64,000 nt of DNA from a virus. Lineage: Duplodnaviria > Caudoviricetes. Where the stretch lies: IMG/VR virus record IMGVR_UViG_3300029305_006500, one strand, 5' to 3'. Below the pieces are notes generated by a model. The model was not told the origin of the DNA. It saw only the letters and a list, made by a program, of their open reading frames with translations, and made no database searches. Of the stretch, positions 15,230-51,521 are shown piece by piece (position 1 is the first letter of the stretch; each line of letters begins with the position of its first letter). Made by a program: the position numbers and the translations under genes.

Positions 15230-15333
15230 TCAAAGAGTGCTACGAAGCCGATTGAGCGTTAGGCAAGCCTGTATCGGAAAGCGGTGTCCCTGAAGCAGCA
15301 GTAGTAAATGGAGTGAGATGAACAGCTCTTTGA
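15230..15333 (+). ncRNA. Scaffold RNA family II, copy 4
   Basis: TCAAAGAG-TGCTACGAAGC...GCAGTAGTAAATGGAGTGAGATGAACAG-CTCTTTGA. Confidence 0.75.
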
Positions 15334-16067: not shown

Positions 16068-16994
16068 ATGTTAATTGGAATTGACTTTGATGGTGTAATG
16101 AATAATATGGTAGAAACTTGGGTAGCTATGCTGAATGATATGTATGGCTTTTCTGTACAAGTTTCAGATATTAAGTCGTGGGAAATGAAAAAAGCTTTTC
16201 CGAAGTTAACTGACGATGAATTGTTTGCTCCTTTGCACATTCCTGAATTTTGGGATAAAGTTACTGCAAAGCATGAGGCTCCAGAAGTAGTTGCCAAGCT
16301 AATTGCTGATGGGCATAGAGTTTATGTGGTTACAACCACTCATTATAATACTTTGGAACCCAAACTTACTAGATGTTTATTTAAGTATTTTCCTTTTTTA
16401 AGTCATCATAATATTATTATTACTTATAATAAATCTTTAATTAATTGCGATTTGCTTCTAGATGATGCAGAACATAATTTAATTGACTTTAATGGTATAA
16501 GAGTTTTATTTGATGCTACTTACAATAAGGCTGCAACTACTTATGATTATCGAGTAAGTTCTTGGAAGGAATTCTATATTCTCGTATGTGGATTAGAAAG
16601 CCGAGTTAATACACCTCCAACCAGAGTGTATAGATTTTCGGCAGGCCGTGGCCAGGGAAAAACTGCATGGCTTCATCAAATGATTAAAGACTCAGAAGGC
16701 TTTGATTGCTATTTTATAGGATCTATTAATCAGCATAGAGCTTTTTGTAAAAGTTTTATGGAGCGTTTTGGTCAACGATGTAATGTTCAGGCATTAAGTA
16801 ACCTTGAAGATTTAAAGGGCCTAAAGCCTGATGCAAGGATTTTTGTAGACATGCCTTCGCAATTTGCAATTAATTCTGAAATTTTTACGGTATTTAAAGA
16901 GTTATTTTTAGCTAGAAATAACTTAATTTTTGTAGCTGATTTTGAAAACATAAATTGGTATGCTATTCATAGTTTAGACAGAAGGAGAGGCTAA
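16068..16994 (+). CDS. 5'(3')-deoxyribonucleotidase (HAD) fused to P-loop-like domain
   Basis: IGIDFDGV, K...DLLLDDAEHN, YN; C-terminal AGRGQGKT. Confidence 0.85.
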   Translation: MLIGIDFDGVMNNMVETWVAMLNDMYGFSVQVSDIKSWEMKKAFPKLTDDELFAPLHIPEFWDKVTAKHEAPEVVAKLIADGHRVYVVTTTHYNTLEPKLTRCLFKYFPFLSHHNIIITYNKSLINCDLLLDDAEHNLIDFNGIRVLFDATYNKAATTYDYRVSSWKEFYILVCGLESRVNTPPTRVYRFSAGRGQGKTAWLHQMIKDSEGFDCYFIGSINQHRAFCKSFMERFGQRCNVQALSNLEDLKGLKPDARIFVDMPSQFAINSEIFTVFKELFLARNNLIFVADFENINWYAIHSLDRRRG

Positions 16995-16995
16995 T

Positions 16996-18417
16996 ATGAG
17001 CTATTATGGAATTGTAACTACTTTAAAGGATGTTAGAAAGCATCCTAATGCAGATCGCCTGCAGCTTGCAGACATTTTTAGAACTACTGTTTGTGTATCT
17101 CTTGATTATACTGAGGGTCAACTTGGTGTATATTTCCCTACTGGTGGCCAGCTTTCTGTAAAGTTTGCTGAAGCTAATAACCTTCTTAGAAAGAAGGATG
17201 CTGAGGGCAATAATATTGGTGGCTACATGGATCCTGATAAAAGAAACGTGACTGCTATTAAGCTTAGGGGTGAGAAGTCTGACGGTCTTTTCCTTCCTCT
17301 TACTTGCCTTGAGACTTTTGGCGATATTTCTTCCCTTAAGGTCGGAGACCATATAGATGTATTTAATGGTGAGGAAATCTGCACCAAGTACATACCTAAG
17401 ACTAGTGCAAGACGTGGACATGTATCTGAGGGCAATCATACTCGTAAATTTAAGGCGCCTATTGCACCTACCTTTGCAGAGCATGCAGATACAGAGCAGC
17501 TTGCTTATAATCTTGGAGCTTTCAAGACCGGGGATGAGCTTGAGCTTTCTCTTAAAATGCATGGTACTTCTCAGCGTACTGGCTATTTAAAGGTGCTTAC
17601 GGGTTATAAGAAGACTTTGCTCGATAAGATCTTTAAGCGTCCTGGAACTCCTATATATGACTGGGGCTATGTATCCGGTACTCGTCGTGTAGTACTTGAT
17701 ACTTTTGATGGTGGCTTTTATGGTTCTAATGAGTTCCGTAAGCAGCATCATGATACTTTTGTAGGAAAGCTTTGGAAGGGCGAGACTGTTTATTACGAGG
17801 TTGTAGGCTTTACTCACACTGGAGCACCTATTATGGGTAATGGTAACAATGAAAAGCTTGGCAAAGACTTTGTAAAGCAGTACGGTAAGGAGACTGTATT
17901 CTCTTATGGTTGTGACCCTGCGGGCATTCGTGAAGTTTATGGCTGTGATGAACAGGGTCACTTCAAGATGTTGCTTGACAAACCTACCTCAGATATTTAT
18001 GTATACCGTATGACTATGACTAACGAGGATGGGGAGGTAGTAGAATATACTCCTGATTTTATACGGTATCGTTGTGAGCAGATGGGTGTAAAAACTGTAC
18101 TAGTATTTGGTAAGGCTACTATTTCTGAAGATAGACTTCATTTTACTGCTCCAGACGGATATGATCATGATTATCTTATCGGGGATGGCGAGCTTGGTGA
18201 TATGGTCATGCGTTGTGCCGAGGATTATTTTGATGGTCCTGATCCTGTTGGTAAGACTCATATTCGTGAGGGTGTAGTAGTTCGTATTGTAAATCGTCCT
18301 AAGTTTGCTGCTTTTAAGCATAAGAATTTTTCATTTAAGGTACTCGAGGGTATTATTAGCGAGAAGCTAACTGAGTCTACTGTAGAGATTGCAGAAGATG
18401 TGCTTGCCGAGATGTAA
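16996..18417 (+). CDS. ATP-dependent RNA ligase (DRB0094/Rnl2-like) with N-terminal OB domain
   Basis: KHPNADRLQ, KLRGEKSDG, motif I KMHGTS, YEVVG, REGVVVR, FKHKNFSF. Confidence 0.88.
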   Translation: MSYYGIVTTLKDVRKHPNADRLQLADIFRTTVCVSLDYTEGQLGVYFPTGGQLSVKFAEANNLLRKKDAEGNNIGGYMDPDKRNVTAIKLRGEKSDGLFLPLTCLETFGDISSLKVGDHIDVFNGEEICTKYIPKTSARRGHVSEGNHTRKFKAPIAPTFAEHADTEQLAYNLGAFKTGDELELSLKMHGTSQRTGYLKVLTGYKKTLLDKIFKRPGTPIYDWGYVSGTRRVVLDTFDGGFYGSNEFRKQHHDTFVGKLWKGETVYYEVVGFTHTGAPIMGNGNNEKLGKDFVKQYGKETVFSYGCDPAGIREVYGCDEQGHFKMLLDKPTSDIYVYRMTMTNEDGEVVEYTPDFIRYRCEQMGVKTVLVFGKATISEDRLHFTAPDGYDHDYLIGDGELGDMVMRCAEDYFDGPDPVGKTHIREGVVVRIVNRPKFAAFKHKNFSFKVLEGIISEKLTESTVEIAEDVLAEM

Positions 18418-18426
18418 GAGGTAATT

Positions 18427-18885
18427 ATGATGTATTTGAGTAAAGCATATTATCGTAAAAGATGTGAGGATAAAGAAGACGAACTACGTGAAGTTCGGAA
18501 AGTAATTAATGAAAAAGATCAAGTTATTAGGTTCCTTTTAGAGGAACCTAATCCTTACAGAATAAAAATAGCACCGGGTGATTGGTGTTGGGTTGGTGAC
18601 AATAGTATTTCAAGAACTCGCCTAGAATATGTAGATGGTCAAGGTGTTTATCATAATTATGTAAAAAATTGGTCTCCAAATAAAATAGAAATTTTAAGTA
18701 CTGATAAAGATACTGCTATTTTGAAGTTATGTACAGAGACTGATAAGCATGTATATTTTATTCTAAATAAAGCTGCTGAGACAACCACTGAGATTTCACA
18801 AGATACTTTAATGAAAATTTGTGACATCGAAGTAGCAAGTTTATTAACTAGTGAAATGAGGAGACTAATTAATCATGGCAAATAA
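18427..18885 (+). CDS. Hypothetical protein
   Basis: GAGG RBS. Confidence 0.7.
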   Translation: MMYLSKAYYRKRCEDKEDELREVRKVINEKDQVIRFLLEEPNPYRIKIAPGDWCWVGDNSISRTRLEYVDGQGVYHNYVKNWSPNKIEILSTDKDTAILKLCTETDKHVYFILNKAAETTTEISQDTLMKICDIEVASLLTSEMRRLINHGK

Positions 18886-19114
18886 AGATATAACTGTTAC
18901 CGCTAACAGCGGAATTGGTGTAAGCACAGTTTTATTTTTGATATTTCTTGTTCTTAAACTTTGTAATGTGATTACATGGTCTTGGTGGTGGGTAACAGCT
19001 CCGCTCTGGATACCTTTTGTTTTATTTTTTACTGCATGTATTATTGTATTTCTTGTGGGTTTTTGTATTGGAGTTATTAGATCTATTGTTAAAATCATGA
19101 AAGGTAGAAAATAA
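18875..19114 (+). CDS. Small membrane protein
   Basis: FLVLKLCNVITWSWWWVTAPLWIP, a common phage membrane family. Confidence 0.8.
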   Translation: MANKDITVTANSGIGVSTVLFLIFLVLKLCNVITWSWWWVTAPLWIPFVLFFTACIIVFLVGFCIGVIRSIVKIMKGRK

Positions 19115-19935
19115 TGGGAAATAGAAAAGATGCTCTTGGAGACCGAATGAAAGAGAACTACGAAAATCGTAGTAAAACATATTTAACTCGCCGTACACCA
19201 TGTATTATTAGACTAGATGGCAAAGCCTGGCACAGCTTTACTAAAGGTTTTAAGCGGCCGTATGATAAGATTTTACATGAAGCCATGAATGATACCGTAA
19301 AGTATTTATGTGCAAATATTCAAGGCTGTAAACTTGGATATACTCAAAGTGATGAGATTACTTTAGTTTTAACTGATTTTGATACAATAACTACTGATGC
19401 TTGGTTTGGGTATTCTGTTCAAAAAATGTGCTCTATTGCAGCTTCTATGGCTACATTAGCTTTTAATAAGGCATTGCAGAAACATAGAGATGAGTTTCTT
19501 AATTCTGTGGCAGCACTTCAAGATTTTGATATAGAAAAAGACTATTTAGTAGCTTTGCAGAAAGCTTTGGATAGAGGTGCACTGTTCGATGCACGTTGCT
19601 TTAGTGTACCAGAATCTGAAATTGTAAATTGTATTTTGTGGAGACAGCAGGATGCTACTAGAAATGCTATTCAAATGCTTGGTCAATGCTATTTTAGTCA
19701 TAAAGAGCTAGATCATAAAAATACAGATATGGTACAAGAAATGCTCTTTACGATAAAGGGTATTAATTTTAATGATATGCCTACTGAGTTTAAACGTGGA
19801 GTTTGTTGCGTTAAAAGAGAAGTTGAGCGTAATGGTGCAATTAGACGCCAGTGGGTTATTGATAGGGAAATTCCTATTTTCTCACAGAGACCCGATTATA
19901 TTCTCAGCGAGGTGTATAAGGAGGCAAATCAGTGA
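19114..19935 (+). CDS. tRNA(His) guanylyltransferase / Thg1-like 3'-5' polymerase
   Basis: RMKENYE, IRLDGKAWHSFT, YTQSDEI, FDAR, WRQQDATRN. Confidence 0.93.
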   Translation: MGNRKDALGDRMKENYENRSKTYLTRRTPCIIRLDGKAWHSFTKGFKRPYDKILHEAMNDTVKYLCANIQGCKLGYTQSDEITLVLTDFDTITTDAWFGYSVQKMCSIAASMATLAFNKALQKHRDEFLNSVAALQDFDIEKDYLVALQKALDRGALFDARCFSVPESEIVNCILWRQQDATRNAIQMLGQCYFSHKELDHKNTDMVQEMLFTIKGINFNDMPTEFKRGVCCVKREVERNGAIRRQWVIDREIPIFSQRPDYILSEVYKEANQ

Positions 19936-20492
19936 ATTTTAAAGAAAGTTTTTTAGAGCTTTGCCAAAAAATCAATCGTCCTGGTATAGTTGAGCTGTGT
20001 ACTTGGCTAGAGGAAAGCGATTTTTATACTGCTCCTGCTAGCACAAGATATCATAGTGCATATGAAGGTGGATTAGTAGCACATTCTGTTACTGTATATA
20101 AAGAGCTTAAGCGTCTTTTAGAGGCTTATCCTGAAATTGCCACAAAAGTAACTGAGGAAAGCATTATTATTGTAGCTTTATTTCATGATCTTTGTAAAGT
20201 AAACTTGTACACAAAAGAAGTAAAGTATCGTAAAGATGATCAGGGTAAATGGGAAACTTATGATGCTTATGTTCATAATGAAAAACTCCATTATGGTGGA
20301 CATGGAAGTAAGTCTGTATTTATTTTACAGAATTTCATTAGACTTTTACCTGAGGAAGCTGTCGCAATAAATTGTCATATGGGAACTTGGGATGGAGAAA
20401 ATAATGTTATCGCCGCAGCTTGGGAGCATTGTTCTTTAGCATGGCTTTTGCATGTTGCAGATGAGAGTGCCACTTTTATTTGTAATACTTAA
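19932..20492 (+). CDS. HD-domain phosphohydrolase
   Basis: FYTAPASTRYH...GGLVAHS...FHDLCK...HG...HMG...LHVAD. Confidence 0.9.
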   Translation: MNFKESFLELCQKINRPGIVELCTWLEESDFYTAPASTRYHSAYEGGLVAHSVTVYKELKRLLEAYPEIATKVTEESIIIVALFHDLCKVNLYTKEVKYRKDDQGKWETYDAYVHNEKLHYGGHGSKSVFILQNFIRLLPEEAVAINCHMGTWDGENNVIAAAWEHCSLAWLLHVADESATFICNT

Positions 20493-20605
20493 AAATTATA
20501 TTAAATTGTCAGTTTATTTTTAAATAACTGGCAATTTTATTTTTATATAAGCTGTATATTATATTGTAAGCAATATAAATAAAAAATATAAAGGAGATTC
20601 TAAAA

Positions 20606-21241
20606 ATGGATATGACAAGTTGCTTTAATGGAATGTTTGGAAAGCTTGGCCCTGGAATGTGTAGACTTACGATGAACGGTAAGATCGCAGTAAAGACTTC
20701 GAGTGGTTATAAGAGCTATAATGTTAAGACAGGTAGATTGACAAACTGCTCAAATTTCGTGTTTAATATTGGCGATGATTTCTTCTTTATTATTCCTACA
20801 AATAAGGTAGATGTCGGCGATATTATTCTGGTTAAGGGCAGACCACAGTGCGTAATTGAAGTCGACAATAAGACCCTTAAGGTTATGAATTACGAGGATA
20901 TGACTATTGACACCATTGTGCCTGAGCGCCATGTTTTTATGGGTAATACATATTTTTATGGCAAGATTGTTAGCCTTATGGGTAGCAATGCCGGTAAAGG
21001 TAAGGATGGAATGAAGCAGATGATGCAGTTCATGATGATGAATCAGATGATGGGTGGCAATAGTAACATCGCTGGCGGAACTATCGGCGGTAATAACAAT
21101 ATGCTCCCTATGATGCTCATGATGAATGGCGGATCTGGAAGTATCTTCGATGGAATGCTTGATGGCATGTTTGACTTTGGTGATTCTGATCCAGAAGCTG
21201 TAGAGGTTGAGGATGAAATTGAAGAGGAGGATGAAGAGTAA
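20606..21241 (+). CDS. Hypothetical protein with Met/Gly/Asn-rich and acidic tail
   Basis: AAGGAG RBS after class-1 promoter 20552-20565; coupled to vWA gene. Confidence 0.8.
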   Translation: MDMTSCFNGMFGKLGPGMCRLTMNGKIAVKTSSGYKSYNVKTGRLTNCSNFVFNIGDDFFFIIPTNKVDVGDIILVKGRPQCVIEVDNKTLKVMNYEDMTIDTIVPERHVFMGNTYFYGKIVSLMGSNAGKGKDGMKQMMQFMMMNQMMGGNSNIAGGTIGGNNNMLPMMLMMNGGSGSIFDGMLDGMFDFGDSDPEAVEVEDEIEEEDEE

Positions 21242-22116
21242 TGGGCGGCGGATCTTGGACAACTTCTTCTTTTGCTTCTTATTCAACTAGCGTTGGCAGA
21301 AGTTATGATGTGAATACTTGCTCTTTTGATAAGAGCTATTCGTCACAGGAGATGTTTAAGCAGAGTATGCTTCATGAGCAGCTTAAGCCTTATAATGTTC
21401 TCCGCGAGTGCGTAGATACTGAAGAGCACCCTAATACTATTCCAGTTATTTTTGGTCTAGATGTAACTGGGTCTATGGGCGATGCGGCAGTTAAATGTGC
21501 GACTGCTATTGATAAGATTATGTCTGAATTGTTTGGAAAGTATAAGGACATTGAGTTTTGCATTATGGGCATTGGAGATCTCGCTTGTGATGATTCACCT
21601 ATTCAGATTTCCCAGTTTGAATCAGATGTGCGTATTGCGGAGTGGATGGATAAAGTTTACTTCGAGTACGGTGGTGGTGGTAATAGTTATGAGTCCTATA
21701 CTGCTGCATGGTACATGGGGTCGAGACACTGTGATCTAGACTGCTGGAAGCGTGGTAAGAAGGGTATTATTATTACGCTGGGCGACGAGCAGCTAAATCC
21801 TTATTTGCCACAGCATAGGTTGCAGGAAGTAACCGGTGATGGTATACAAGCACATATTGAAACTAAAGATCTTTATGAAGAGGCGTCTGAGAAATTTGAA
21901 ATTTTCCATATTGATGTAGATCATCGTTGGAATCATGATACTCAGATTGTGCCTTCTTGGACAAAATATTTGGATAATGAGCATTTTAAAACTGTAAAGC
22001 TCGATAATGTAACAGATACTATTGTAGAGATGATTTCCAGCGTTTTGGATAAGGCATCAGAAGCTACAGGTACTACAAATGTGCAGCTTAATGAAAACGG
22101 AGAGGTAGTTTGGTAA
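21241..22116 (+). CDS. vWA-domain protein
   Basis: MIDAS-like LDVTGSMG, GGGGNSYESY, IITLGDE. Confidence 0.88.
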   Translation: MGGGSWTTSSFASYSTSVGRSYDVNTCSFDKSYSSQEMFKQSMLHEQLKPYNVLRECVDTEEHPNTIPVIFGLDVTGSMGDAAVKCATAIDKIMSELFGKYKDIEFCIMGIGDLACDDSPIQISQFESDVRIAEWMDKVYFEYGGGGNSYESYTAAWYMGSRHCDLDCWKRGKKGIIITLGDEQLNPYLPQHRLQEVTGDGIQAHIETKDLYEEASEKFEIFHIDVDHRWNHDTQIVPSWTKYLDNEHFKTVKLDNVTDTIVEMISSVLDKASEATGTTNVQLNENGEVVW

Positions 22117-22117
22117 T

Positions 22118-23323
22118 ATGACAAACATAAAGGTAGTAATGGGGGCATCTTTTGGAGATGAAGGTAAAGGTTTGATGTCAGATTATTTTTGTCATCAAGC
22201 AGTTTCTAAAGGAGAGGATTGTGTAGTAGTACTTTCTAATGGTGGTGCTCAGAGAGGACATACTGTAACTCTTGCAGATGGGACTCAACATGTATTCCAT
22301 CATTTTGGGTCAGGTACTTTTACTGGTGCGCGTACTTATTGTATTAGTGACTATATCCTTAACCCCATGACCTTTGTGAAGGAGTATCAAGAACTTGCTC
22401 AGCTTGGATATAGACTAAGCGATATGATCATAGAAAGCCGCTGCCGTTGGTCTACCCCATTTGATATGATTACAAATCAAATTCTTGAAGCCTCTCGTGG
22501 AGATGCAAAGCATGGAAGCTGTGGTATGGGCATTTGGGAGACTTCAGTGCGATATCAACGTTTAAAAAATCAGCCTACATTGGAAGAGTTTGATCTTTGG
22601 CCTAGAGATAAGAAGCTAGAATTTCTGAATGATTGTAGAACTTTTATGATTACAAGACTTGCTGAGGAAGGTGTATCTTATATTCCGGATGAGTGGTATG
22701 AAATTGTACATTCTGAAACTCTGCTCCAGCATTTTATAGATGATGTGCGGTTTATGATAAAGCATACGATACCTGCTTTTTTAGTTCCACTTACAAGCTT
22801 TAAAAATATTGTATTTGAAAATGGACAAGGCTTGTTACTTGACCAAGATCTTACTTTTTATGGAAATAATACTACACCGAGTGCCACAGGTTCTACAAAT
22901 GCTATTAAAACTATTAATAAATACTTTAGTAGGCCTTCTGATGAACTTGCTATAGAAATGTGTTATGTGTCTAGAACTTATATGACTAGACATGGGGTAG
23001 GTCGTTTTGAAACTGAGTGCAAAAAAGAGCTTTTGAATAAGGATATGTTTGATGAGACTAACGTTACCAATCCTTTTCAAGATAATTTACGTTATGGAGA
23101 GCTTATTTTGCCTAATCTTGTTACAAGGGTGTCACAGGATTTTAGTCGTGCCTGTGATCTACTTGTGAATAAAAAACATGCTTCTTTAGTTGCTAATGTA
23201 GCAATGACGCATACAAATGAATATGAAGTAGATTATGCAAGAATTAGAGATAAGCTAATTAGTAATATCTATACTTCTAATACTAGAACAAGAGATTCTG
23301 TAAAGTTATTTACCGAATTTTAA
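22118..23323 (+). CDS. Adenylosuccinate synthetase-like protein (divergent PurA)
   Basis: GASFGDEGKG, NGGAQRGHT, GSCGMGI, FENGQGLLLD, RTYMTRHG. Confidence 0.88.
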   Translation: MTNIKVVMGASFGDEGKGLMSDYFCHQAVSKGEDCVVVLSNGGAQRGHTVTLADGTQHVFHHFGSGTFTGARTYCISDYILNPMTFVKEYQELAQLGYRLSDMIIESRCRWSTPFDMITNQILEASRGDAKHGSCGMGIWETSVRYQRLKNQPTLEEFDLWPRDKKLEFLNDCRTFMITRLAEEGVSYIPDEWYEIVHSETLLQHFIDDVRFMIKHTIPAFLVPLTSFKNIVFENGQGLLLDQDLTFYGNNTTPSATGSTNAIKTINKYFSRPSDELAIEMCYVSRTYMTRHGVGRFETECKKELLNKDMFDETNVTNPFQDNLRYGELILPNLVTRVSQDFSRACDLLVNKKHASLVANVAMTHTNEYEVDYARIRDKLISNIYTSNTRTRDSVKLFTEF

Positions 23324-23337
23324 TTTAGGAGGCTTTA

Positions 23338-23742
23338 ATGAGTACATTTGTAAGAGAGAAAGTTTTAAGGATTCCTTATGAAAATACAGGTTGGCAGCAT
23401 AGGTTTTCAGACCCAGAGGCTGCTAAAGAATACTGCGAAGCAAATTTTAGTAATTTATTTGGCCATGGTAAGGTAGGTAAATTTCAGTTTTCACCCACTG
23501 AAAGAACTTTTATTGATTTTGTAATTGATCGAGAATATGATGCAGATGGTGGGGAATGGGGTAAGGTACGTGAGCTCTATCAGACTGAATTTAATACATT
23601 TGCTAGGTTGTTTGCACAGATTATGCCTGCTGCAGAGTTTTCTGCTATTAGAGTTGTGGAGTTTTGCTGGTATAACTGTACAGAGGCAGACGATTATTAT
23701 GAGTATGATGAGGATCCTTTTTACCGAGAGATTATACTATGA
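23338..23742 (+). CDS. Hypothetical protein
   Basis: AGGAGG RBS. Confidence 0.7.
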   Translation: MSTFVREKVLRIPYENTGWQHRFSDPEAAKEYCEANFSNLFGHGKVGKFQFSPTERTFIDFVIDREYDADGGEWGKVRELYQTEFNTFARLFAQIMPAAEFSAIRVVEFCWYNCTEADDYYEYDEDPFYREIIL

Positions 23743-23942
23743 ATATTCTATATTATGATCAATCTGCACCAAAAGATAAACTTTTTGAGGCTGTAAAAAT
23801 TCTCAGAGAGATTTTGGCTTCAGAGTTAATAGTGCTGCCTAAAGACTATGAATTAATTCTTGATTGCCCACTTAGTCGCTTACTTGAAATAAGAGGATTG
23901 CTTGACAAGGCTATTAAGGAGCTTGAAGAGAAAAATTGCTGA
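23739..23942 (+). CDS. Hypothetical protein
   Basis: ATGA coupling, followed by terminator-like hairpin. Confidence 0.65.
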   Translation: MNILYYDQSAPKDKLFEAVKILREILASELIVLPKDYELILDCPLSRLLEIRGLLDKAIKELEEKNC

Positions 23943-24005
23943 GATAGCAATTTTTCTCTTTCTTTTTATTGTATATTATAATAGATTTAAATCGGAGGTT
24001 TTATT

Positions 24006-24710
24006 ATGGTTTATGTTACGGGAGATATACATGGAAACCCGGAGTACCTGATTTATAAAGCGCAATCGCTAGGCTTAAATAGAGACGACATCTTAGTTAT
24101 TTTAGGGGATGTTGGTGCTAATTATTATCTGAATAAAAAAGATGATAGACTAAAAGAAGCGCTGGATAAATATATTGAGGCTACCATTCTTTGTATTCAT
24201 GGAAATCATGAGGAACGCCCTTGGAACGTGGAAGGCTATTATATGGAAACCTGGAATAATGGTCTTATTTGGAAGCAGAAACAGTTTCCTAAACTTTTAT
24301 TTGCTTGCGATGGCAGTGTTTTTGATCTAGATGGGATCAGTTGTCTGGTGCTTGGTGGAGCTTATAGCGTAGATAAGTATTATCGTTTACAATCTGGCTA
24401 TGCATGGTTCCCTGAGGAGCAGCCGTCAGATGAAATCAAAGAAGTAGTAGATTTACAGCTTAATAATATTAATTATAAAGTAGATGCCGTATTTTCACAT
24501 ACTTGTCCATTTAAGTATGAGCCAATTGAGGAATTTATTTCTTGTATAGATCAATCTACGGTGGATGATAGCACAGAGCGTTGGCTTGACGAAATTGAAG
24601 ATAAACTTGAGTATAAAGCTTGGTTTTGTGGGCACTGGCACACGAATAAGCATATAGATAAAATGCACTTCTTATTTGGGGATTGGGAGCTTTTGGAGGA
24701 TATAAGATGA
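24006..24710 (+). CDS. Calcineurin-like metallophosphoesterase
   Basis: GDIHG, LGDVG, HGNHE, SHT, CGHWH. Confidence 0.92.
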   Translation: MVYVTGDIHGNPEYLIYKAQSLGLNRDDILVILGDVGANYYLNKKDDRLKEALDKYIEATILCIHGNHEERPWNVEGYYMETWNNGLIWKQKQFPKLLFACDGSVFDLDGISCLVLGGAYSVDKYYRLQSGYAWFPEEQPSDEIKEVVDLQLNNINYKVDAVFSHTCPFKYEPIEEFISCIDQSTVDDSTERWLDEIEDKLEYKAWFCGHWHTNKHIDKMHFLFGDWELLEDIR

Positions 24711-25633
24711 ATGAAATGTATAATGTAATTGCGGATGTTGATGAACTTAAATGGTTTTTCGATAATGTTTTAGCTAAACCTGCCATACATGAATCTTATG
24801 CAGCAGTTTTTTGTGCACGTTATAAAAAACTTACTGAGTCAGAACGTGCTGAGGTTGGTATTTCCAAGCGAGATGCAGAATTTATGGCTACTCTGACATT
24901 TCGTGTTCGCAAATTTCATAATGCTTTAGATTTTGAGAAAGATGATGGTTGGAATTTTAATAATTTTATAAAATATCTTAAGCGTTTTAACGTGGATAAG
25001 GGTGCTTATTTGACAACTGGTGGCTATCCTCTACCTGAGAAATGTCTTGCTACTATTTTTTATGTTAATCCTTGTGATGAAATTAAAGTAGCAGATGAGG
25101 TAATGCGAAAGCTTGAGGAGACTAAAACTGCTATAGTGAAAGCAATGCTTAATGGCAAGACTCTTGATGATAATATGCAATCCTATCAGGCATTCAGTAA
25201 TATTGAGAGAAATGTAAAACATGCTAGGGCACATTGTAAAGGATCCATTTTTTGGCTCGACTTTGATCTAGATGTGCCTCCATGGTTTAAAGACCAGTCG
25301 AATGATTATTATAATCAGATGCTAAATTGTTTAAACCAAAGATTTGGTCTAGGTAACTATTTAATTATTGATACGTCTGGTGGCTATCATGTGCTTGTTA
25401 AAACTAAATATATACACGAAGATCCTCATAATTTTTGTAAGGATATGCAAGGCCTGTATTGGAGAGCTATTACAGAGGACGGTTGCATGCCTTATATTGA
25501 TGAAAAAGGAACTGAAAAATTTGAGTGTATTGTAAATGACTCGCAAATTCCTGGTATTCCAATGCCTGGTACCTACCAGTATGGCCGGCCAGTAATTATA
25601 TTGAATAAAGAAAATTTTGTGCCTATAGGCTAA
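24707..25633 (+). CDS. Hypothetical protein with AEP (primase-polymerase)-like motifs
   Basis: WLDFDLD, DTSGGYHVLV, IPMPGT. Confidence 0.55.
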   Translation: MNEMYNVIADVDELKWFFDNVLAKPAIHESYAAVFCARYKKLTESERAEVGISKRDAEFMATLTFRVRKFHNALDFEKDDGWNFNNFIKYLKRFNVDKGAYLTTGGYPLPEKCLATIFYVNPCDEIKVADEVMRKLEETKTAIVKAMLNGKTLDDNMQSYQAFSNIERNVKHARAHCKGSIFWLDFDLDVPPWFKDQSNDYYNQMLNCLNQRFGLGNYLIIDTSGGYHVLVKTKYIHEDPHNFCKDMQGLYWRAITEDGCMPYIDEKGTEKFECIVNDSQIPGIPMPGTYQYGRPVIILNKENFVPIG

Positions 25634-25699
25634 ATAGTATATTATGGTGTTGTATATTATAATGTAAATAAAATTTAATTATTTTAGGAGAGAATTAAA

Positions 25700-26065
25700 A
25701 TGAGAAATTATGAAACTTCCGTGTATGAGTACACCAATAAGAAGGGATTGAAGGTCATTAAGGCAGTAACACAGTATGCAGGTAAGTACGTATTTGCTAC
25801 TGCAACTTTGTGCCCTGGAGATGAGTATGACTATGAACTCGGTCGAAAGATTGCGGAAAAACGCCTTGACTATAAGATTGCTCAGAAGCGTGCCTCAAGT
25901 ATGAACCACCGAGCTAAGATGTACGCGCAGACCATTGAAGAGTATAAGACTCAGATTCGTGTAATGGAAAAAGAAATGGAAAAAGCTTTGGTTGCAGAAG
26001 GAAATCGTAGAGCAGAAGCAGCTGAGCTGAGCGCCGAGATTTTTACGCTTATTCACGGAATTTAA
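25700..26065 (+). CDS. Hypothetical protein
   Basis: CPGDEYDYELGRKIA motif; follows class-1 promoter 25650-25663. Confidence 0.75.
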   Translation: MRNYETSVYEYTNKKGLKVIKAVTQYAGKYVFATATLCPGDEYDYELGRKIAEKRLDYKIAQKRASSMNHRAKMYAQTIEEYKTQIRVMEKEMEKALVAEGNRRAEAAELSAEIFTLIHGI

Positions 26066-26271
26066 TGAAGAAAGAAGTTTGGGTATGCTTGGTACATACT
26101 AACGGAAAGCCGTCAGTAATTAGCTCTGACGGCTATTCTTCTCTAAGTAAAGCTCAAGATGCTTTATGCCTAAGACTCTGTAACGAAGGCTATTGGCAAG
26201 ATGAGTTTAATTATGTACAGCAAAATGGCTTAAAACATTATGAACTTAAATGTATTACTTTGGAGGCTTAA
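26065..26271 (+). CDS. Hypothetical protein
   Basis: TAATG coupling. Confidence 0.65.
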   Translation: MKKEVWVCLVHTNGKPSVISSDGYSSLSKAQDALCLRLCNEGYWQDEFNYVQQNGLKHYELKCITLEA

Positions 26272-26273
26272 TA

Positions 26274-26486
26274 ATGGAAGAAAAGCTTTTTAGCAGAACG
26301 TGCCCGAAGTGTGGAGCAATTTGCTCTGAGACACAGATTGCTAAAGTAAATTTAGGTCCTGGGGCACAAGTTAATATGTGTTGTGAGAGCGGCCATAAGT
26401 GGACTGAGTTTTATAGCTTGACTTATCAAGGTTTTTGGTGGGATGGTAAAATGTATAATTCTTTTGGAGAGGAAAAGAATGACTGA
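26274..26486 (+). CDS. Zn-ribbon protein
   Basis: CPKCG...CESGHKW, GGAGG RBS. Confidence 0.7.
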   Translation: MEEKLFSRTCPKCGAICSETQIAKVNLGPGAQVNMCCESGHKWTEFYSLTYQGFWWDGKMYNSFGEEKND

Positions 26487-26709
26487 TCAGGAAGTAATCG
26501 ATCGTTTTGTGACTAAGATTAAAGCTTATTATAGTGCTCCAAGATATACTGATCGTAGAGAGCCTCCACATACTCTTGTGTCCCATTTGTTTTGGGTGCT
26601 AGATAAGTTAGCCAAAGAAGATATTATAAATGAAGAAGTAGACCTTAGGCCAAGAACTCCAGCAGACTATGATAAGTTTATGGAAGAGTTTAATTCATGT
26701 TATAAATAA
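26479..26709 (+). CDS. Hypothetical protein
   Basis: RBS, ATG 26479. Confidence 0.65.
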   Translation: MTDQEVIDRFVTKIKAYYSAPRYTDRREPPHTLVSHLFWVLDKLAKEDIINEEVDLRPRTPADYDKFMEEFNSCYK

Positions 26710-26721
26710 TAGGAGGATTTC

Positions 26722-27441
26722 ATGTACGACGATTTTTTTGATTATAATGAACCAAGCACTGGCGATTTGGTATATGAAGAGATTAAGAAAGTTTTACTTG
26801 GTACTGTAAAGCAAGAATTTCTTGATGAGCTTGAAAAGCTTAGAAAAGAAAATGAAGAGCTTCGACCTTATAAATATGAGCGTGATCGTATGAGAGCGGA
26901 GCTTAATACTGTACGGCGAGATTGTGAACGTCGTATTGAAGCAGCTGAGGATAATGCTAAAAGACTTACTCTTGAAGAGTTGTTTGGTGAATGCATTATT
27001 GAAGCTTGGAAAGTAGGACGTCGTAAGGTTTATGTTCCTAAGTGTGATAAATGTGATGATGAGCGCAAAGTTCATTTTATGTCACCAAGAGGCAAGGAAT
27101 TAACAGAGCCTTGTGAGTGTGATAAGTATAGAACAGTCTTTGAGCCCGTACCTGCCTTGCTGACGAGGTTTAAGATTTATCCTAAATTTCCTATTGTAAA
27201 TCAATTTAGAGATTCTACTTTTGATAAGCCAGTTTATTATTGGTATACTACTCGCTGTGATAACATTACTAATGAATGTGAGTTTCAGATTTCTGATTTT
27301 TCTGATGTAGGAACTAGTCGGACAGTAGATAACCTACCTTTCAAAGACCTTAATGAATGGTATAGCGTATTTCATAGCAAGGAATGCTGTCAAGAGTTTT
27401 GTGATTATTTGGCTAAAAAGGAAGCAGAGAAAACTGTATAA
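26722..27441 (+). CDS. Coiled-coil/Zn-finger hypothetical protein
   Basis: AGGAGG RBS, KCDKCD...CEC. Confidence 0.75.
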   Translation: MYDDFFDYNEPSTGDLVYEEIKKVLLGTVKQEFLDELEKLRKENEELRPYKYERDRMRAELNTVRRDCERRIEAAEDNAKRLTLEELFGECIIEAWKVGRRKVYVPKCDKCDDERKVHFMSPRGKELTEPCECDKYRTVFEPVPALLTRFKIYPKFPIVNQFRDSTFDKPVYYWYTTRCDNITNECEFQISDFSDVGTSRTVDNLPFKDLNEWYSVFHSKECCQEFCDYLAKKEAEKTV

Positions 27442-27494
27442 TAAAAAGAGAGGTATTTGGGATGAACCCAATATAATAGGAGTTATAGTGTAAG

Positions 27495-27923
27495 ATGATT
27501 TTAAGAATTACTGTTGGAGATAACGATTTTACTCAAGAGCTTGAACAGTTTGCTAATGATCCTGAAGGCTCTGCTTACTTATTAAAAGCCTGTAAGCTTG
27601 AGAATAAAGAGCTTACACAAGATGAAAAGATTGAATTATTTAAACGTGCAGATAGATTTAGAGACTTATTTTACATGACAGATAAGTACACTCCTGAACT
27701 TGCTAAAGAGCTTTGTGACATGCTGCAGCAAAATTGGGAGAACTTTGTAAATTATATTATGTGTGATCATGACTATTGGGATGAAGAGGATAAAGTCAGA
27801 ATTCGCAAGTATCTTATTCGTGATTTTAAAGTAAAGTTCCAAAAGAGTCTTACCCCAAAAGATGAAAATGGTGAGGTAGTATATATTTGTTGTGGATATC
27901 ATAGAAGGTGGTGGACATTTTAA
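27495..27923 (+). CDS. Hypothetical protein
   Basis: AGGAG RBS. Confidence 0.7.
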   Translation: MILRITVGDNDFTQELEQFANDPEGSAYLLKACKLENKELTQDEKIELFKRADRFRDLFYMTDKYTPELAKELCDMLQQNWENFVNYIMCDHDYWDEEDKVRIRKYLIRDFKVKFQKSLTPKDENGEVVYICCGYHRRWWTF

Positions 27924-28372
27924 TGAAAAATATAACACCTGAATTTACTTGGAAAGTAAAACTTTTTGATGTAAATAGCCATAAGATTATTGATTATGAT
28001 ATTTTAGAATACCGAGAAGAAAAAATTAAAAAATTTAAAAAAACGTATAAAACTTTTGAAGCTTTTGCAGATGCTCTTCAGAGAGACCTAATGCATCAGT
28101 TTTGGTCTAGATCTGAATACGAGCTTTTGATAGGCTATGAGGACAGTATGCTTTGCTTATGGCCTTGGATCTTTGAAGCAGATCGATATATTATTCCAAA
28201 AGACCCCGATTTTGATTGGACAGCTTTTGCAGCAGAATTTTTAAGTACAAAAGCTTGGTATGACGGAAAAGCAAAGATTGATGTTTGGGATCAAATTAAT
28301 TTTAGATTTGGTGAGTTTGCAAGATTTTGTTGGCATTTTCGACATAAATATCAAAGGAGTGCTAAACAGTGA
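27923..28372 (+). CDS. Hypothetical protein
   Basis: FWSRSEYE...KIDVWDQI motif, TAATG coupling. Confidence 0.7.
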   Translation: MKNITPEFTWKVKLFDVNSHKIIDYDILEYREEKIKKFKKTYKTFEAFADALQRDLMHQFWSRSEYELLIGYEDSMLCLWPWIFEADRYIIPKDPDFDWTAFAAEFLSTKAWYDGKAKIDVWDQINFRFGEFARFCWHFRHKYQRSAKQ

Positions 28373-28650
28373 GTTGTAGATTTTGTGAAAACAATAGAAC
28401 AAATCCTGAATGGGAGCTTGACGAAGAACAAGTATTTTATGCCATGACAGTTGGCATGACTGAAGATGGCTACAGAATTATGTATAACAAAAAACCCTAT
28501 AGACCACTTGAACTAATTTTTGAGAAGTGGAACAGTAAACTTAGCCCTACAGTTTGGCAGACTATGGGAGTTTATTATCCTAAGTATTGTCCTGAGTGTG
28601 GAAGAAAAATTGATGAGTATGATAGGAGCAAGTTTGACAACTATGGCTAA
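28369..28650 (+). CDS. Zn-binding hypothetical protein
   Basis: CRFC...YCPECGRK. Confidence 0.7.
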   Translation: MSCRFCENNRTNPEWELDEEQVFYAMTVGMTEDGYRIMYNKKPYRPLELIFEKWNSKLSPTVWQTMGVYYPKYCPECGRKIDEYDRSKFDNYG

Positions 28651-37636: not shown

Positions 37637-37809
37637 GGAGTAGGTAGTGAAGTGGTCAAACACGCGGACTGTAACTCCGTGCTTTATTGTAATGTATAGT
37701 TAGCATGAAGGAACTCGCGACTCCGGATCTGGATGTTAACTACATTCGTGGGTTAGGCGCGCATGTGCCCCGTAAAGCTTCGCTGGTTCGAATCCAGCCC
37801 TCTCCACCA
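37637..37809 (+). tRNA. tRNA-Tyr(GUA) with about 100-nt variable arm
   Basis: GCGGA-CTGTAAC-TCCGT, V region 37681-37781, T arm, ACCA. Confidence 0.75.
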
Positions 37810-37818
37810 AATTTATAT

Positions 37819-37893
37819 GGGTAAGTAGCATTGTGGAATGCAGACGTTAAACGTCCCGCGGGAAGTATGGTTCGACTCCTACCTTATCCACCA
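37819..37893 (+). ncRNA. Pseudo-tRNA with collapsed anticodon loop
   Basis: GGGTAAG/CTTATCC-ACCA; GACGT-TAA-ACGTC. Confidence 0.5.
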
Positions 37894-39146: not shown

Positions 39147-39221
39147 GCACCCGTAACTCAGTGGTAGAGTATCTGACTTTTAATCAGAGAGTCGTGGATT
39201 CGAGTTCCACCGGGTGCACCA
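39147..39221 (+). tRNA. tRNA-Lys(UUU)
   Basis: TCTGA-CTTTTAA-TCAGA, ACCA. Confidence 0.93.
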
Positions 39222-39242: not shown

Positions 39243-39884
39243 ATGGCTTATATTTATGAAATTATTAATGACATAAATAATAAAAGTTATATAGGGAAGA
39301 CTGAATTTGCAATCGAGCGAAGGTTTAAAGAGCATTGTAAAGAAGCTTTTCGTAATCGTTGTGAAAAACGTCCTTTATATGCTGCAATGCGAAAGTACGG
39401 TATTGAACATTTTCATATTGAATTACTAGAAGAAACTGAGTTACCTGAAGAACGCGAAATATTTTGGATTGCAACTAAACAGACCTATAAGCAAGGCTAT
39501 AATGCTACTCTAGGTGGCGATGGTAAAAAATACTTAGACTATGACTTAGTGGTTACTACATATAAACAACTTGGTACCATTTCAGCTGTAGCTGACAGAC
39601 TTAATATCCACCGGGAAACTATTAGTAAAATTTTACGAATTAAGCAAATTGATGTGAAAACATCTTATGAGGTATTATTGGAAAAAACTGGAAAAGCTGT
39701 TGAACAATACTCACTTACAGGTGAATATATTGCAACCTTTCCGTCTACTTTAGCTGCTGTGAAAGCTTTAGGTAAAATGCAAAATAAACAAACAGATCGT
39801 GGTTCAGCTGGACATATTGCCGATGTCTGTAACGGTAAACGTAAGACTGCTTATGGTTATATTTGGTGCTATCAAACTATTTAG
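39243..39884 (+). CDS. GIY-YIG homing endonuclease with C-terminal NUMOD1-like DNA-binding domain
   Basis: AYIYEI...YIGKT...RFKEH...EREIFWI...GYNATLGGDG; VEQYSLTG...CNGKRKTAYGYIW. Confidence 0.9.
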   Translation: MAYIYEIINDINNKSYIGKTEFAIERRFKEHCKEAFRNRCEKRPLYAAMRKYGIEHFHIELLEETELPEEREIFWIATKQTYKQGYNATLGGDGKKYLDYDLVVTTYKQLGTISAVADRLNIHRETISKILRIKQIDVKTSYEVLLEKTGKAVEQYSLTGEYIATFPSTLAAVKALGKMQNKQTDRGSAGHIADVCNGKRKTAYGYIWCYQTI

Positions 39885-47872: not shown

Positions 47873-48028
47873 ATGGCAAAGCGTATTATTGAAAATGGAA
47901 AGTATAATGTAATTACTTGTTCCGAATGCGGTTGCAAGTTTGCATTTGATAAAACTGATATTGAAACTGATGGTACTGTAACTTGTCCTCAGTGCGATAA
48001 AGCAAATACTCCTACTGTTAAAAAGTAA
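47873..48028 (+). CDS. Zn-ribbon protein (51 aa)
   Basis: AGGAG RBS; CSECGCKF...CPQC. Confidence 0.75.
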   Translation: MAKRIIENGKYNVITCSECGCKFAFDKTDIETDGTVTCPQCDKANTPTVKK

Positions 48029-48049
48029 TTAAATATATCGTATATTTTA

Positions 48050-48177
48050 TTAGGTGCCACGAAGCAGGCAAGTGCATTTACCGATAGAGGGAGCTAGTCA
48101 TAAGTACTAGAGGGTCCAACTGTGCATAGCCTTGAATACCAGCAGCTGTGGTAAATGGAGTGAGATGAACAGCCTAA
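48050..48177 (+). ncRNA. Scaffold RNA family II, copy 6
   Basis: TTAGG-TGCCACGAAGC...GCTGTGGTAAATGGAGTGAGATGAACAG-CCTAA. Confidence 0.75.
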
Positions 48178-48235
48178 CGTTCTGAGAGGAAGCGATAACA
48201 GAGTAACGTAAAACTTAACACTTCCACTTTTATAT

Positions 48236-48318
48236 GCCCTTATGGTGTAATTTTTTGGTTAACACAGCTGACTGTCACTCAGCAGACGTGGTGGGTTCGA
48301 GTCCCCCTGGGGGCGCCA
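48236..48318 (+). tRNA. tRNA-Asp(GUC)
   Basis: GCTGA-CTGTCAC-TCAGC, GCCA; enlarged D loop and V region. Confidence 0.85.
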
Positions 48319-48603
48319 ATATGCCGTTTGAAACAAATATGTCGTTGGGTCAGAGATAATATTTAGCTAGCTTTTAAGTATTATCGTAACGAAATGTGTA
48401 GTTGAGTGACTTTAAGCTCGCCATTAATTAAAAATATTATTGGTCGCTGTGGTATGAACACAGACGCTGTCTCAGGTCGTAGCAGCGGAGCAAGGACGCG
48501 GTGAACTGACGACGAATGTCACCAGTCTAAATTAGCGGGGAGCAGAAGCTTGTGTAAAGTGGTGAGTTTTAGCGAATAATTCCACGCCAATTATATTATA
48601 TAT

Positions 48604-48790
48604 CGTGAGGATAGACGAAGCATCGAGTCGGGTCTCTTATCATATGAGGCTGACAACGCTAGAAGTAAGTCTGAAAGTATCAGCTGTAGAATAAGAAACT
48701 GCTTCTTGAAGTGAAAAATAGGTGATGTACTTCGGTACCATGTATCTAGTAGCAAGTTATAAGTAGGTTTAAGTCCTACCTTCACAACCA
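48604..48790 (+). ncRNA. Initiator-tRNA-like RNA with about 100-nt variable-region insertion
   Basis: C1:A72 mismatch, CAT in an enlarged loop, GTAGG/CCTAC T stem, ACCA. Confidence 0.55.
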
Positions 48791-48797
48791 TTTATAT

Positions 48798-48948
48798 TCC
48801 TCGGTAGCTCAGCTGGTAGAGCAACAGACTGGTCCGAATAGTTCAGTTGAGAGAACCGCCGGCGTAAGCAGGCTAGACGTGAGTTTGAGTCTCACTTTGG
48901 GCACCATTAATCTGTGGGTCACAGGTTCGAGACCTGTCCGAGGAGCCA
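48798..48948 (+). tRNA. tRNA-Asn(GUU) interrupted by a nested tRNA-like unit
   Basis: 48798-48831 plus 48907-48948 give ACAGA-CTGTTAA-TCTGT, U1-A72, GCCA. Confidence 0.85.
48832..48906 (+). ncRNA. Nested 75-nt tRNA-like element
   Basis: GTCCGAA/TTTGGGC-A-CCA, D arm GTTC/GAAC, T arm GTGAG/CTCAC, GNRA-capped anticodon arm. Confidence 0.8.
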
Positions 48949-49076
48949 CTGGTTTCACTTATATAGTGATATAATTGCGCAGACTAAGAAATACCAGAGC
49001 AGCGACGGCGAGATAACCGTGAGTAAACTCCCTTTCGTTTATTACTTTTGAACTGGCATGATTGTAAAAGTAATAT

Positions 49077-49152
49077 GCTCGGTTAGTCAAGTTGGCCAAG
49101 ACGCCGGCCCTTCAAGCCGGAGGCAGGAGTTCGAATCTCCTACCGAGTACCA
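49077..49152 (+). tRNA. tRNA-Glu(UUC), C33
   Basis: CCGGC-CCTTCAA-GCCGG, ACCA. Confidence 0.85.
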
Positions 49153-49330
49153 GGCTGCCGTGGATTGCCGACCCCTTAATGGCCACGGGTGGGGATAGGT
49201 TGGTAAACCGACTATGGTAAGCATAGAAAAGTTTCCAAAGTATCGACGGAATAAAGACATGGGTTGAAATCCCACATCGCCGCTATGGCGTGATAGTTTA
49301 GGTTGCGAGAATATTATTGAAGATACTAGG

Positions 49331-49470
49331 TAGGTGCTACGAAGCCACAAATCGTTACATTTAGGTGTTGATTGTAAAAACGCGGTCATTGTTTATACCG
49401 GTATAAACCTCTGATGGGAAACGAGACGGATAAAAGAAGCAGTAGTAAATGGAATTAGATAAACAGCCTA
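49331..49470 (+). ncRNA. Scaffold RNA family II, copy 7
   Basis: TAGG-TGCTACGAAGC...GCAGTAGTAAATGGAATTAGATAAACAG-CCTA. Confidence 0.75.
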
Positions 49471-49524
49471 AATTTTTTTTTAAATTAAATAAAATTTTAA
49501 AAATTATATTGTATAATATAATAA

Positions 49525-50402
49525 CGGGCCTGACCGATAACTTCCCGTAAGGGAATGAAAGGAGTATACTGACAAGACTCCGCTGTGATGAGCAGTACCT
49601 CAGGCAATGTGTGACGGGACCTGTAAGAATTGAAAAGATTCTTACGAATATGCTAACCCCATGTTCTAACTTGTCAATGATGAAATGAATGAGATTAGTT
49701 GAGGGCCAACTGGTTGAACTAATTTCTGCTCTCGCAAGGAGCTGGTTTCAATGCAAAAGGATTTGATGAGGTAAGGTAAGCTACAGGAAGTAAAATAGTT
49801 CAAGTTTTAGCAAGCAAGGGCGACTTCCATTTATATCTGCTATGGTGGATATAAGAAATACAAGTACGAAGCCAAGGAAAGTATTGAAGGCGGGTAGCAT
49901 TCTTGCACTCAAAAGGTGTGAGAACTACAACAATAGTCTGTCTTCCGTCAAATCTCAACTTAGCGTGGGTTCGAGCCCCACCCGGCGTGCCAATTTTATC
50001 TTATAGAGATAATTAGCACTTATCTCTTGCATACGCCGGTAGCTCAGTAGGCAGAGCGGTTGTCATAGGAAAACAATGTCATGAGTAAAAACCTATTGTT
50101 GGAAACAAAGAAAAGTGTCTTAAGCCCAGAGTGGTAAGCAATCTGGGATATTAGGTGTCACAAGCATCTAGTATTTGATTGAAACGAATCTATAGAGGCG
50201 TAGCAACCTCGAACAGCCCGCAAGGTTGATAGTGGAGTGATAATCGAGTAATTGTTTCTGTAAAGGCGAAAGCAAGCCTGGAGCCCTTGTGCTGGGGTGA
50301 CGAATTGCAGGCATGAGCGGTACTTCCCAAAAGGAAGTGGAAAAGTGACTAAAAAATAAGGTCATTAAGCCGTAGCAATCATAAGATGTATTCTCAGTCT
50401 TT
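49525..50402 (+). ncRNA. GOLLD-like large RNA (about 880 nt)
   Basis: Starts at promoter 49509-49522; 5' CTGA pairs with 3' TCAG; many GNRA/GCAA hairpins, two CAAAAGG loops; size and phage-tRNA context fit GOLLD (from memory). Confidence 0.65.
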
Positions 50403-51519: not shown

Positions 51520-51521
51520 CC

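Follow-up and report, generated by a model that had tools for sequence, protein, structure and literature searches.

A tRNA-shaped insert in the anticodon of a phage tRNA-Asn gene and a candidate route for its removal

How does a tRNA gene come to carry a whole tRNA-like unit within its anticodon, and would such a gene still yield a decoding tRNA? This question is raised by a tRNA-Asn gene of a 146.5-kb IMG/VR phage record (CheckV completeness 63%), of which bases 60746–124745 constitute the 64,000-nucleotide stretch analysed here, referred to as the window. Introns termed "enigmatic" were reported for the tRNAs of Lak megaphages, one of which "may encode a tRNA" and for which the true boundary was one base off the prediction (Devoto et al. 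2019, PMC6784885), and a 2026 survey of jumbo phages noted that such introns "could encode another tRNA" (PMC13037316). No mechanism for tRNA-containing tRNA introns is given in PMC6784885, in PMC13037316, or in the literature searched.

The interrupted tRNA-Asn gene and its surroundings

The gene is located on the + strand and consists of two exons separated by 75 nt. The 5′ exon, corresponding to nucleotides 1–34 of tRNA-Asn(GUU), was placed at 48798–48831 by sequence reading and ARAGORN; it contains the acceptor 5′ strand, the D arm, the 5′ strand of the anticodon stem, and C32, U33, and G34, ending with CTG. The 3′ exon (nucleotides 35–76), placed in the same manner at 48907–48948, starts with TTAA and supplies U35, U36, A37, A38, the 3′ strand of the anticodon stem, the variable loop, the T arm, the acceptor 3′ strand, G73, and CCA, ending with GCCA. 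When both exons were joined, ARAGORN gave a 76-nt tRNA-Asn(gtt) with all stems paired, which bears out the claim of the initial annotation that excision of exactly 48832–48906 restores a flawless tRNA-Asn(GUU). Its claim that this is the sole Asn tRNA also holds, as none further was found in the window or elsewhere in the 146.5-kb record; with Asn included, the tRNA array serves all 20 amino acids. The splice boundary is unique for Asn. A shift of +1 produces a Thr(GGU) loop, which is the call made by ARAGORN -i, and the outer tRNA body with U1–A72 and G73, which matches the intact Asn genes of relatives, argues against Thr. The insert is flanked by no target-site duplication, and the nucleotide 5′ of it is G in this gene, with U preferred elsewhere.

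The insert (48832–48906, + strand) was itself recognised as tRNA-shaped by the Rfam tRNA model, ARAGORN -ps, and the minimum-free-energy fold. As described initially, it is a cloverleaf running from G1 through CCA with a GTAA-capped arm, and it scored 35.0 bits against an Rfam gathering score of 29. Its acceptor stem of 7 bp, including two G·U pairs, is formed by 48832–38 with 48896–902, followed by U8 and A9 at 48839–40 and a D arm with a 4-bp stem at 48841–56. The anticodon arm is replaced by the hairpin GCCGGC-GTAA-GCAGGC at 48858–73 (6 bp with one G·A mismatch), and the T arm at 48879–95 has a 5-bp stem and the loop TTTGAGT; A73 at 48903 and CCA at 48904–06 complete the 3′ end. The insert contains no 7-nt decoding anticodon loop, and ARAGORN finds it in the relaxed mode only, with a 2-nt "anticodon".

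Searches with this region gave no direct counterpart. No match was obtained by blastn of 48200–49200 against cultured phages, or by an exact search of IMG/VR with a 28-mer spanning the 5′ junction. An 18-mer of the insert hairpin had only chance matches in GC-rich coding DNA, the pattern GAATAGTT...TTTRGGCACCA retrieved chance coding DNA and ordinary tRNA-Thr genes, and a 3′-junction pattern gave four chance matches and zero nested tRNAs in 185,579 prokaryote genomes. No close parent tRNA of the insert was found in the window or in the relatives. The T arm and acceptor 3′ strand of the insert are similar to bacterial tRNA-Leu (106 of the pattern matches), and its 5′ part is similar to phage tRNA-Thr.

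The gene belongs to an array of about 32 tRNA genes, all on one strand, at 35.4–51.6 kb of the window. CCA is encoded by all of them but one, and U occupies position −1 in 26 of the 32. The local order Leu(tag)-Asp-Asn-Glu(ttc) is syntenic with the intact tRNA-Asn genes of relatives. At 35438–35761 (+ strand), a tRNA-Leu(UAA) gene is interrupted between U34 and A35 by a 237-nt group-I-like intron (35473–35709), which matched Rfam Intron_gpI with 28.6 bits (E = 1.4e-5), under the gathering score of 50. The exons of this gene are identical at 87 of 87 positions to those of the relative L003, in which, as in L039, the same site holds a tRNA-shaped intron. Introns of different kinds within identical exons indicate intron turnover at these sites.

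Several other unusual RNAs and genes were observed in this array. GOLLD RNA (RF02032) lies inside it at 49885–50400 of the window and at 15329–15844 of L004, scoring 155 and 156 bits, which are above the gathering score. The region 35040–35300 contains permuted tRNA-like modules composed of a T arm, an acceptor closed by a CTT loop, and a D arm, with repeated linker motifs. These modules (35067–35291) matched YrlA weakly, with scores of 34.8 and 32.3 bits where the threshold is 69. Rfam also read 35132–35260 as a tRNA, in which a 71-nt insert takes the place of the anticodon arm. A Tyr-like tRNA with the loop CTGTAAC and a variable-arm insert of ~85–90 nt occurs at 37637–37809 and is conserved at L003:4930–5092 and L039:5548–5710, with a normal tRNA-Tyr present elsewhere in the array. 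ARAGORN -i reported this 37637–37809 region as a second Asn gene with a 93-nt intron, a call that we rejected, since the gene is the conserved Tyr-like tRNA just described and its variable arm is giant. A tRNA-Asp(GUC) with an enlarged D loop (48236–48318) was missed by ARAGORN and scored 42.9 bits with Rfam, and a tRNA-like match at 37819–37890 (33 bits) was obtained by Rfam only. An 89-nt tRNA-like gene at L003:5097–5185 (identical to L002:1165–1253) has a four-base anticodon (tcac) according to ARAGORN. At 51521/51522, tRNA-Met and tRNA-Thr seemed to follow each other with a spacer of zero nucleotides; this was considered as an analogue of the 5′ junction and dropped, as the end called by ARAGORN is not a CCA. 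A free-standing gene resembling GIY-YIG/NUMOD1 homing endonucleases (39243–39884) directly follows the 3′ end of tRNA-Lys(UUU) (39147–39221), and is a candidate for driving DNA-level exchange within the array.

Homologous inserts in related phages

Relatives were found by protein-anchored searches and share 55–70% amino-acid identity, the same Leu(tag)-Asp-Asn-Glu(ttc) order, and an uninterrupted Asn gene. Those carrying inserts, which were detected with Rfam and ARAGORN -i, are metagenomic phages of 220–233 kb. A search for the Asn insertion among relatives, as proposed in the initial annotation, gave a divided answer: the Asn gene is intact there, and inserts homologous to that of Asn occur in other tRNA genes of L003, L039, L004, L006, and L172. 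Ten sequence variants were obtained, which derive from seven insertion events including Asn. Four events lie between nucleotides 34 and 35, namely Asn in the window, Leu(UAA) in L003, L014, and L131 (with a diverged form in L039, L056, and L144), Gln(UUG) in L004, L005, L034, L040, and L043, and Lys(UUU) in L006. Gln(UUG) and Lys(UUU) of L039 are interrupted between 35 and 36, and Met(CAU) of L172 between 36 and 37. The Asn, Leu(UAA), Gln, and Lys genes are each interrupted in some relatives and intact in others. When a generic nested-tRNA finder was applied to 213 loci (1.5 Mb), tRNA-shaped inserts were confined to this clade.

The inserts are 63–123 nt long and ORF-less. All ten variants start with the first nucleotide of an acceptor stem in which all 7 bp form, and end with N73-CCA. 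Each contains U8 and a D arm, as well as a T stem of 5 bp, likewise paired throughout, with the loop TTYRARN; the only variable part is the region replacing the anticodon arm, which ranges from 13 to 74 nt. Among seven aligned members, 84 of the 84 acceptor- and T-stem cells are paired, with three pairs changed on both sides, as compared with 30–58% for slid controls, and three more distant members contribute additional pair types. The occurrence of G·U pairs and of G·U-to-G-C changes indicates that selection operates on the + strand RNA and not on a DNA inverted repeat. The base preceding the intron is U in six of the seven events, as it is before 26 of the 32 ordinary tRNAs of the array, and the splice sites share no sequence on the 3′ side. 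Since related phages show the same design in six further tRNA genes, its chance origin is excluded. These data are best explained if the Asn insert belongs to a family of small, mobile, tRNA-shaped introns located in anticodons within one clade of jumbo phages.

Two side observations concern particular introns. Among the members of the family, the 115-nt introns at L004:3141–3255 and L006:282–396 contain a conserved extra domain of ~60 nt with the motif TAGACTATGGGGAAA and a covarying hairpin; the domain has no Rfam match, and a 15-mer from it gave chance matches only. Three clear group-I-type introns of 189–237 nt with the core motif AGTCCAGACCACAAAC were found in other jumbo phages (L046:3526–5058 and L061:420–693), where each interrupts an anticodon loop; the tRNAs affected are tRNA-Arg(UCU), tRNA-Leu(UAA), and one other.

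The exons have also been kept. For all seven events, excision gives a canonical 7-nt loop with U33, a purine at 37, and an anticodon that matches the tRNA body. Between L003 and L039, the exons of Leu(UAA) show 14 differences, comprising four compensatory pairs and loop changes, and none of these breaks a stem; the introns of these two phages have diverged as well with their stems preserved. In G003, whose genome is 100% complete and gave 17 tRNA matches in one array, no Lys, Gln, or Leu(UAA) gene is free of such an insert. Judging from such sequences, the outer tRNAs look functional, and the pattern of changes indicates that selection is acting on the exons as well as on the shape of the intron.

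A candidate splicing route and its rivals

Since the insert boundaries lie exactly at nucleotide +1 and CCA, tRNA end-processing enzymes are implicated. Cleavage by RNase P leaves a 3′-OH upstream and a 5′-phosphate downstream, RNase Z leaves a trailer with a 5′-phosphate, and ligases of the Rnl type require precisely 3′-OH and 5′-phosphate ends. The insert may be a protein-dependent intron that is removed by RNase P, a tRNA 3′-end nuclease, and an RNA ligase, a tentative reading whose chances we put somewhat short of even. The precursor would be a cloverleaf growing from the anticodon loop of another cloverleaf. RNase P would recognise the inner acceptor, T arm, and elbow together with the ACCA tail and cut 5′ of intron G1, leaving G34 with a 3′-OH, and a tRNA 3′-end endonuclease would cut just after the intron CCA, leaving U35 of the 3′ exon with a 5′-phosphate. 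The exon halves would be held together by the outer acceptor and anticodon stems until an ATP-dependent RNA ligase (here, the product of ORF 16996–18417) seals the nick to give functional tRNA-Asn(GUU). The intron parts conserved in the alignment (the acceptor stem, the D and T arms, and RCCA) are those recognised by RNase P and 3′-end enzymes, and variation is confined to the region that these enzymes disregard. We infer both the occurrence of splicing and the enzyme for each step, among which the 3′ nuclease is the weakest link. To our knowledge, no enzyme cuts generally and precisely after an encoded CCA; RNase Z of Thermotoga does cut after CCA, and that of Bacillus is inhibited by CCA. 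In Lak-A1, whose tRNA genes are without CCA, the intron ends directly after N73 of the inner tRNA, which corresponds to the RNase Z site, so that the 3′ boundary appears to follow the local manner of making tRNA 3′ ends. The 31-nt 5′ leader of the Lak introns counts against the route, since RNase P alone would leave it in place. A parallel drawn initially with colicin E5, which cuts between 34 and 35, proved not to be general, since the family also uses the sites between 35 and 36 and between 36 and 37.

The candidate sealing enzyme at 16996–18417 (+ strand) was assigned from profile matches as an ATP-dependent RNA ligase of the DraRnl/Rnl5 type. It matched phrog_968 RNA ligase (E = 1.8e-65), TIGR02306 RNA_lig_DRB0094 (E = 6.5e-14, below the curated cut-off), and the PHA02142 OB fold, and shares 49% identity with the RNA ligase of Bacillus phage PBC2. 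The gene is part of a cluster for RNA and nucleotide metabolism at 16068–32178 of the window, upstream of the tRNA array, that also encodes an NT5C-like nucleotidase, HD proteins (one at 19932–20492), adenylosuccinate synthetase, a metallophosphoesterase (Metallophos, 24006–24710), and a fusion of a P-loop polynucleotide-kinase-like domain with an HD phosphohydrolase (31240–32178, + strand; AAA_33, E = 2e-25; HD, E = 2.4e-8). A Thg1-like 3′–5′ polymerase is encoded at 19114–19935. The kinase part of the fusion matched that of bacterial Pnkp with E = 1.3e-18, below the cut-off, and the protein could heal the ends if the cuts left 5′-OH and 2′,3′-cyclic phosphate. The earlier proposal that a phage ligase acts as the sealer is supported in that ATP-dependent RNA ligases were present in all four genomes tested, though they belong to different families; for example, G003, which has three tRNA-shaped introns, also has an Rnl1-type ligase. 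It does not extend to the particular enzyme, as the 16996 type is missing from the intron carriers G001 and G003, where other ligase families are found, and hence no single ligase tracks the introns. In the phage record (G000), at 63% completeness, no genes for EndA (PF01974), RtcB (PF01139), RNase Z-like proteins, or reverse transcriptase were detected, and RtcB was likewise missing from G001–G003.

Could the interrupted gene instead be fresh wreckage? In that case tRNA-Asn would have been inactivated only recently, by a selfish mobile insert or by the retro-copy of a mis-ligation product, its halves would not have had time to decay, and the phage would use the tRNA-Asn of its host. For the Asn gene alone, a recent disabling insertion is conceivable because it is known from a single assembly and has no diverged copy, and L003, L004, and L039 have an intact Asn gene at the syntenic place. 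The Leu(UAA) inserts, however, persist in the diverged lineages of L003 and L039, whose exons have changed in a compensatory way with every stem intact, the complete G003 would lose three isoacceptors together, and Asn would be the sole gap in an otherwise full 20-amino-acid set. We therefore regard such inactivation as unlikely. Of the two origins considered initially, an intron or the fossil of a mis-ligated tRNA, the comparative data favour the intron over a one-off fossil, with the enzymes still a matter that we infer. An artefact of assembly or sequencing, which the origin of the Asn case in one metagenome-assembled record might suggest, is extremely improbable. A chimera cannot insert a unique structured 75-nt unit into one gene and leave both halves exact, and the genome holds no second copy of the insert by which an assembler might be misled. 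Several inserts recur in independent assemblies from different samples (L003/L014/L131, L039/L056/L144, and L004/L034/L040), which rules out an artefact for the entire family.

The remaining rivals concern the fate and chemistry of the RNA. The exons may never be rejoined, and the gene would then give either the inner tRNA mimic, which has no anticodon, or the double cloverleaf in full; this product would serve as a decoy or scaffold, for example by soaking up anticodon nucleases or by partnering a Ro60/TROVE-like protein as Y RNAs do. The genome is indeed rich in tRNA-derived non-decoding RNAs, such as the permuted modules with weak YrlA matches and the GOLLD RNA. A scaffold would nevertheless have no need for flanking loop nucleotides that rebuild a 7-nt loop fitting the identity of the body, as seen in seven of seven events, and the interrupted genes are the only ones for their isoacceptors. 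The identity of the insert as a YrlA / Y RNA-like mimic (RF02553) was also discarded, since it scored 19–20 bits against a threshold of 69 and its arms are not permuted. That the exons are never rejoined is judged to be quite unlikely. Even less probable is that the cuts are made by other chemistry, that is, by an anticodon-nuclease-like or metal-independent endonuclease or by a small self-cleaving fold, giving 2′,3′-cyclic phosphate and 5′-OH ends that the kinase-HD protein and a phosphoesterase heal and the ligase seals, in the manner of T4 Pnkp/Rnl1 tRNA repair. A full heal-and-seal kit is encoded in the window (31240–32178, 24006–24710, 19932–20492, and the ligase), and the Asn, Lys, Gln, and Leu-UAA tRNAs have hypermodified wobble bases targeted by known anticodon nucleases, which favours this chemistry. 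It leaves unexplained, however, why a complete tRNA mimic ends at +1 and CCA. No known ribozyme or other Rfam family was found in the 75-nt or 115-nt introns, and the cut sites vary among the three positions with no common sequence on the 3′ side.

Returning to protein-dependent removal, it can be extended to a third tRNA splicing route native to bacteria and phages, in which a tRNA-mimic intron is excised by the universal makers of tRNA ends, with RNase P acting at +1 and a 3′-end endonuclease after CCA or N73, and an ATP-dependent ligase rejoins the anticodon. This wider proposal is speculative, and we consider it possible, with the greater weight of doubt against it. If its steps were reversed, an excised intron would be ligated into an anticodon-nicked tRNA and the product copied back to DNA, which would explain the hopping of ORF-less introns between unrelated tRNAs at positions 34–37. 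The third route would also explain the RNA ligases in large phages. If the halves are rejoined, the process would represent protein-only tRNA splicing in the bacterial world by housekeeping tRNA processing enzymes and a ligase, separate from group I self-splicing on the one hand and from archaeal/eukaryal splicing by endonuclease on the other. The "enigmatic" introns of Lak and other jumbo phages would then have a concrete mechanism, and a programmed role in addition to repair would be suggested for the RNA ligases of phages. Engineered RNA processing may also profit from this design, in which a tRNA unit is self-excising and the nick left behind can be ligated. Apart from the mechanism, tRNA finders miss or mis-assign interrupted genes (Asn as Thr, Gln as Pro, and Lys as Thr), and the tRNA repertoires of phages, as well as inferences on codon usage and suppressor tRNAs, are consequently distorted.

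Comparison with known introns and tRNA-processing systems

As one of two readings, the initial annotation proposed a new intron type. The kind is not entirely new, as introns of phage tRNAs that may encode a tRNA were already published in 2019; we regard the insert as a variant of a reported but unexplained kind of intron. As in Lak phages, the anticodon loop encoded by a phage tRNA gene is interrupted by an intron with a tRNA-like cloverleaf inside; the presence of the intron varies among related phages, finders misplace its boundary by one base, and it is too small for self-splicing. The Lak introns differ in having a hairpin leader of ~31 nt and in ending after N73 with no CCA, as Lak tRNA genes generally do, whereas the present intron is the tRNA mimic alone, from nucleotide 1 to CCA, with no such leader. 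The inner tRNA of Lak retains a 7-nt anticodon-type loop, whereas the anticodon arm is replaced here. No sequence similarity between the two groups is detectable, and the present phages use the standard genetic code.

Group I introns share with this family the site between U34 and A35 of tRNA-Leu(UAA), mobility, and a patchy distribution. They usually span at least about 200 nt, in contrast to the 63–123 nt of the family inserts, which have no catalytic core (P3–P9). By the group I rule, the 5′ exon ends with U and the intron with G, whereas G34 and A76 occupy these positions in the Asn case, and Intron_gpI (RF00028) had no match at E ≤ 1 in 48000–49800. A formal likeness is given by archaeal and eukaryal tRNA introns, for which proteins cut the RNA at two shape-defined sites and the paired exon halves are ligated. 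These systems employ EndA with RtcB or Trl1; the present setting is bacterial, and the expected ends are 3′-OH and 5′-phosphate instead of cyclic phosphate and 5′-OH. The bulge-helix-bulge is also absent from the predicted folds, where the inner acceptor helix is flanked by loop nucleotides and not by 3-nt bulges placed 4 bp apart.

The sealing step resembles the repair of anticodon loops in T4 (PrrC, Pnkp, and Rnl1), in which a phage RNA ligase closes an anticodon-loop break, and the window likewise contains genes for a ligase and a kinase/phosphatase. T4 repairs damage inflicted by its host, whereas the break considered here would be a programmed maturation step of the phage's own tRNA. The cutting step resembles MALAT1 mascRNA, mitochondrial tRNA punctuation, and engineered tRNA-gRNA arrays, where the tRNA shape serves purely to direct RNase P and RNase Z to their cuts and the flanking RNAs are set free with defined ends; in none of these does the tRNA lie inside another tRNA, and their flanks stay unjoined, whereas those of the Asn insert would be rejoined into a tRNA.
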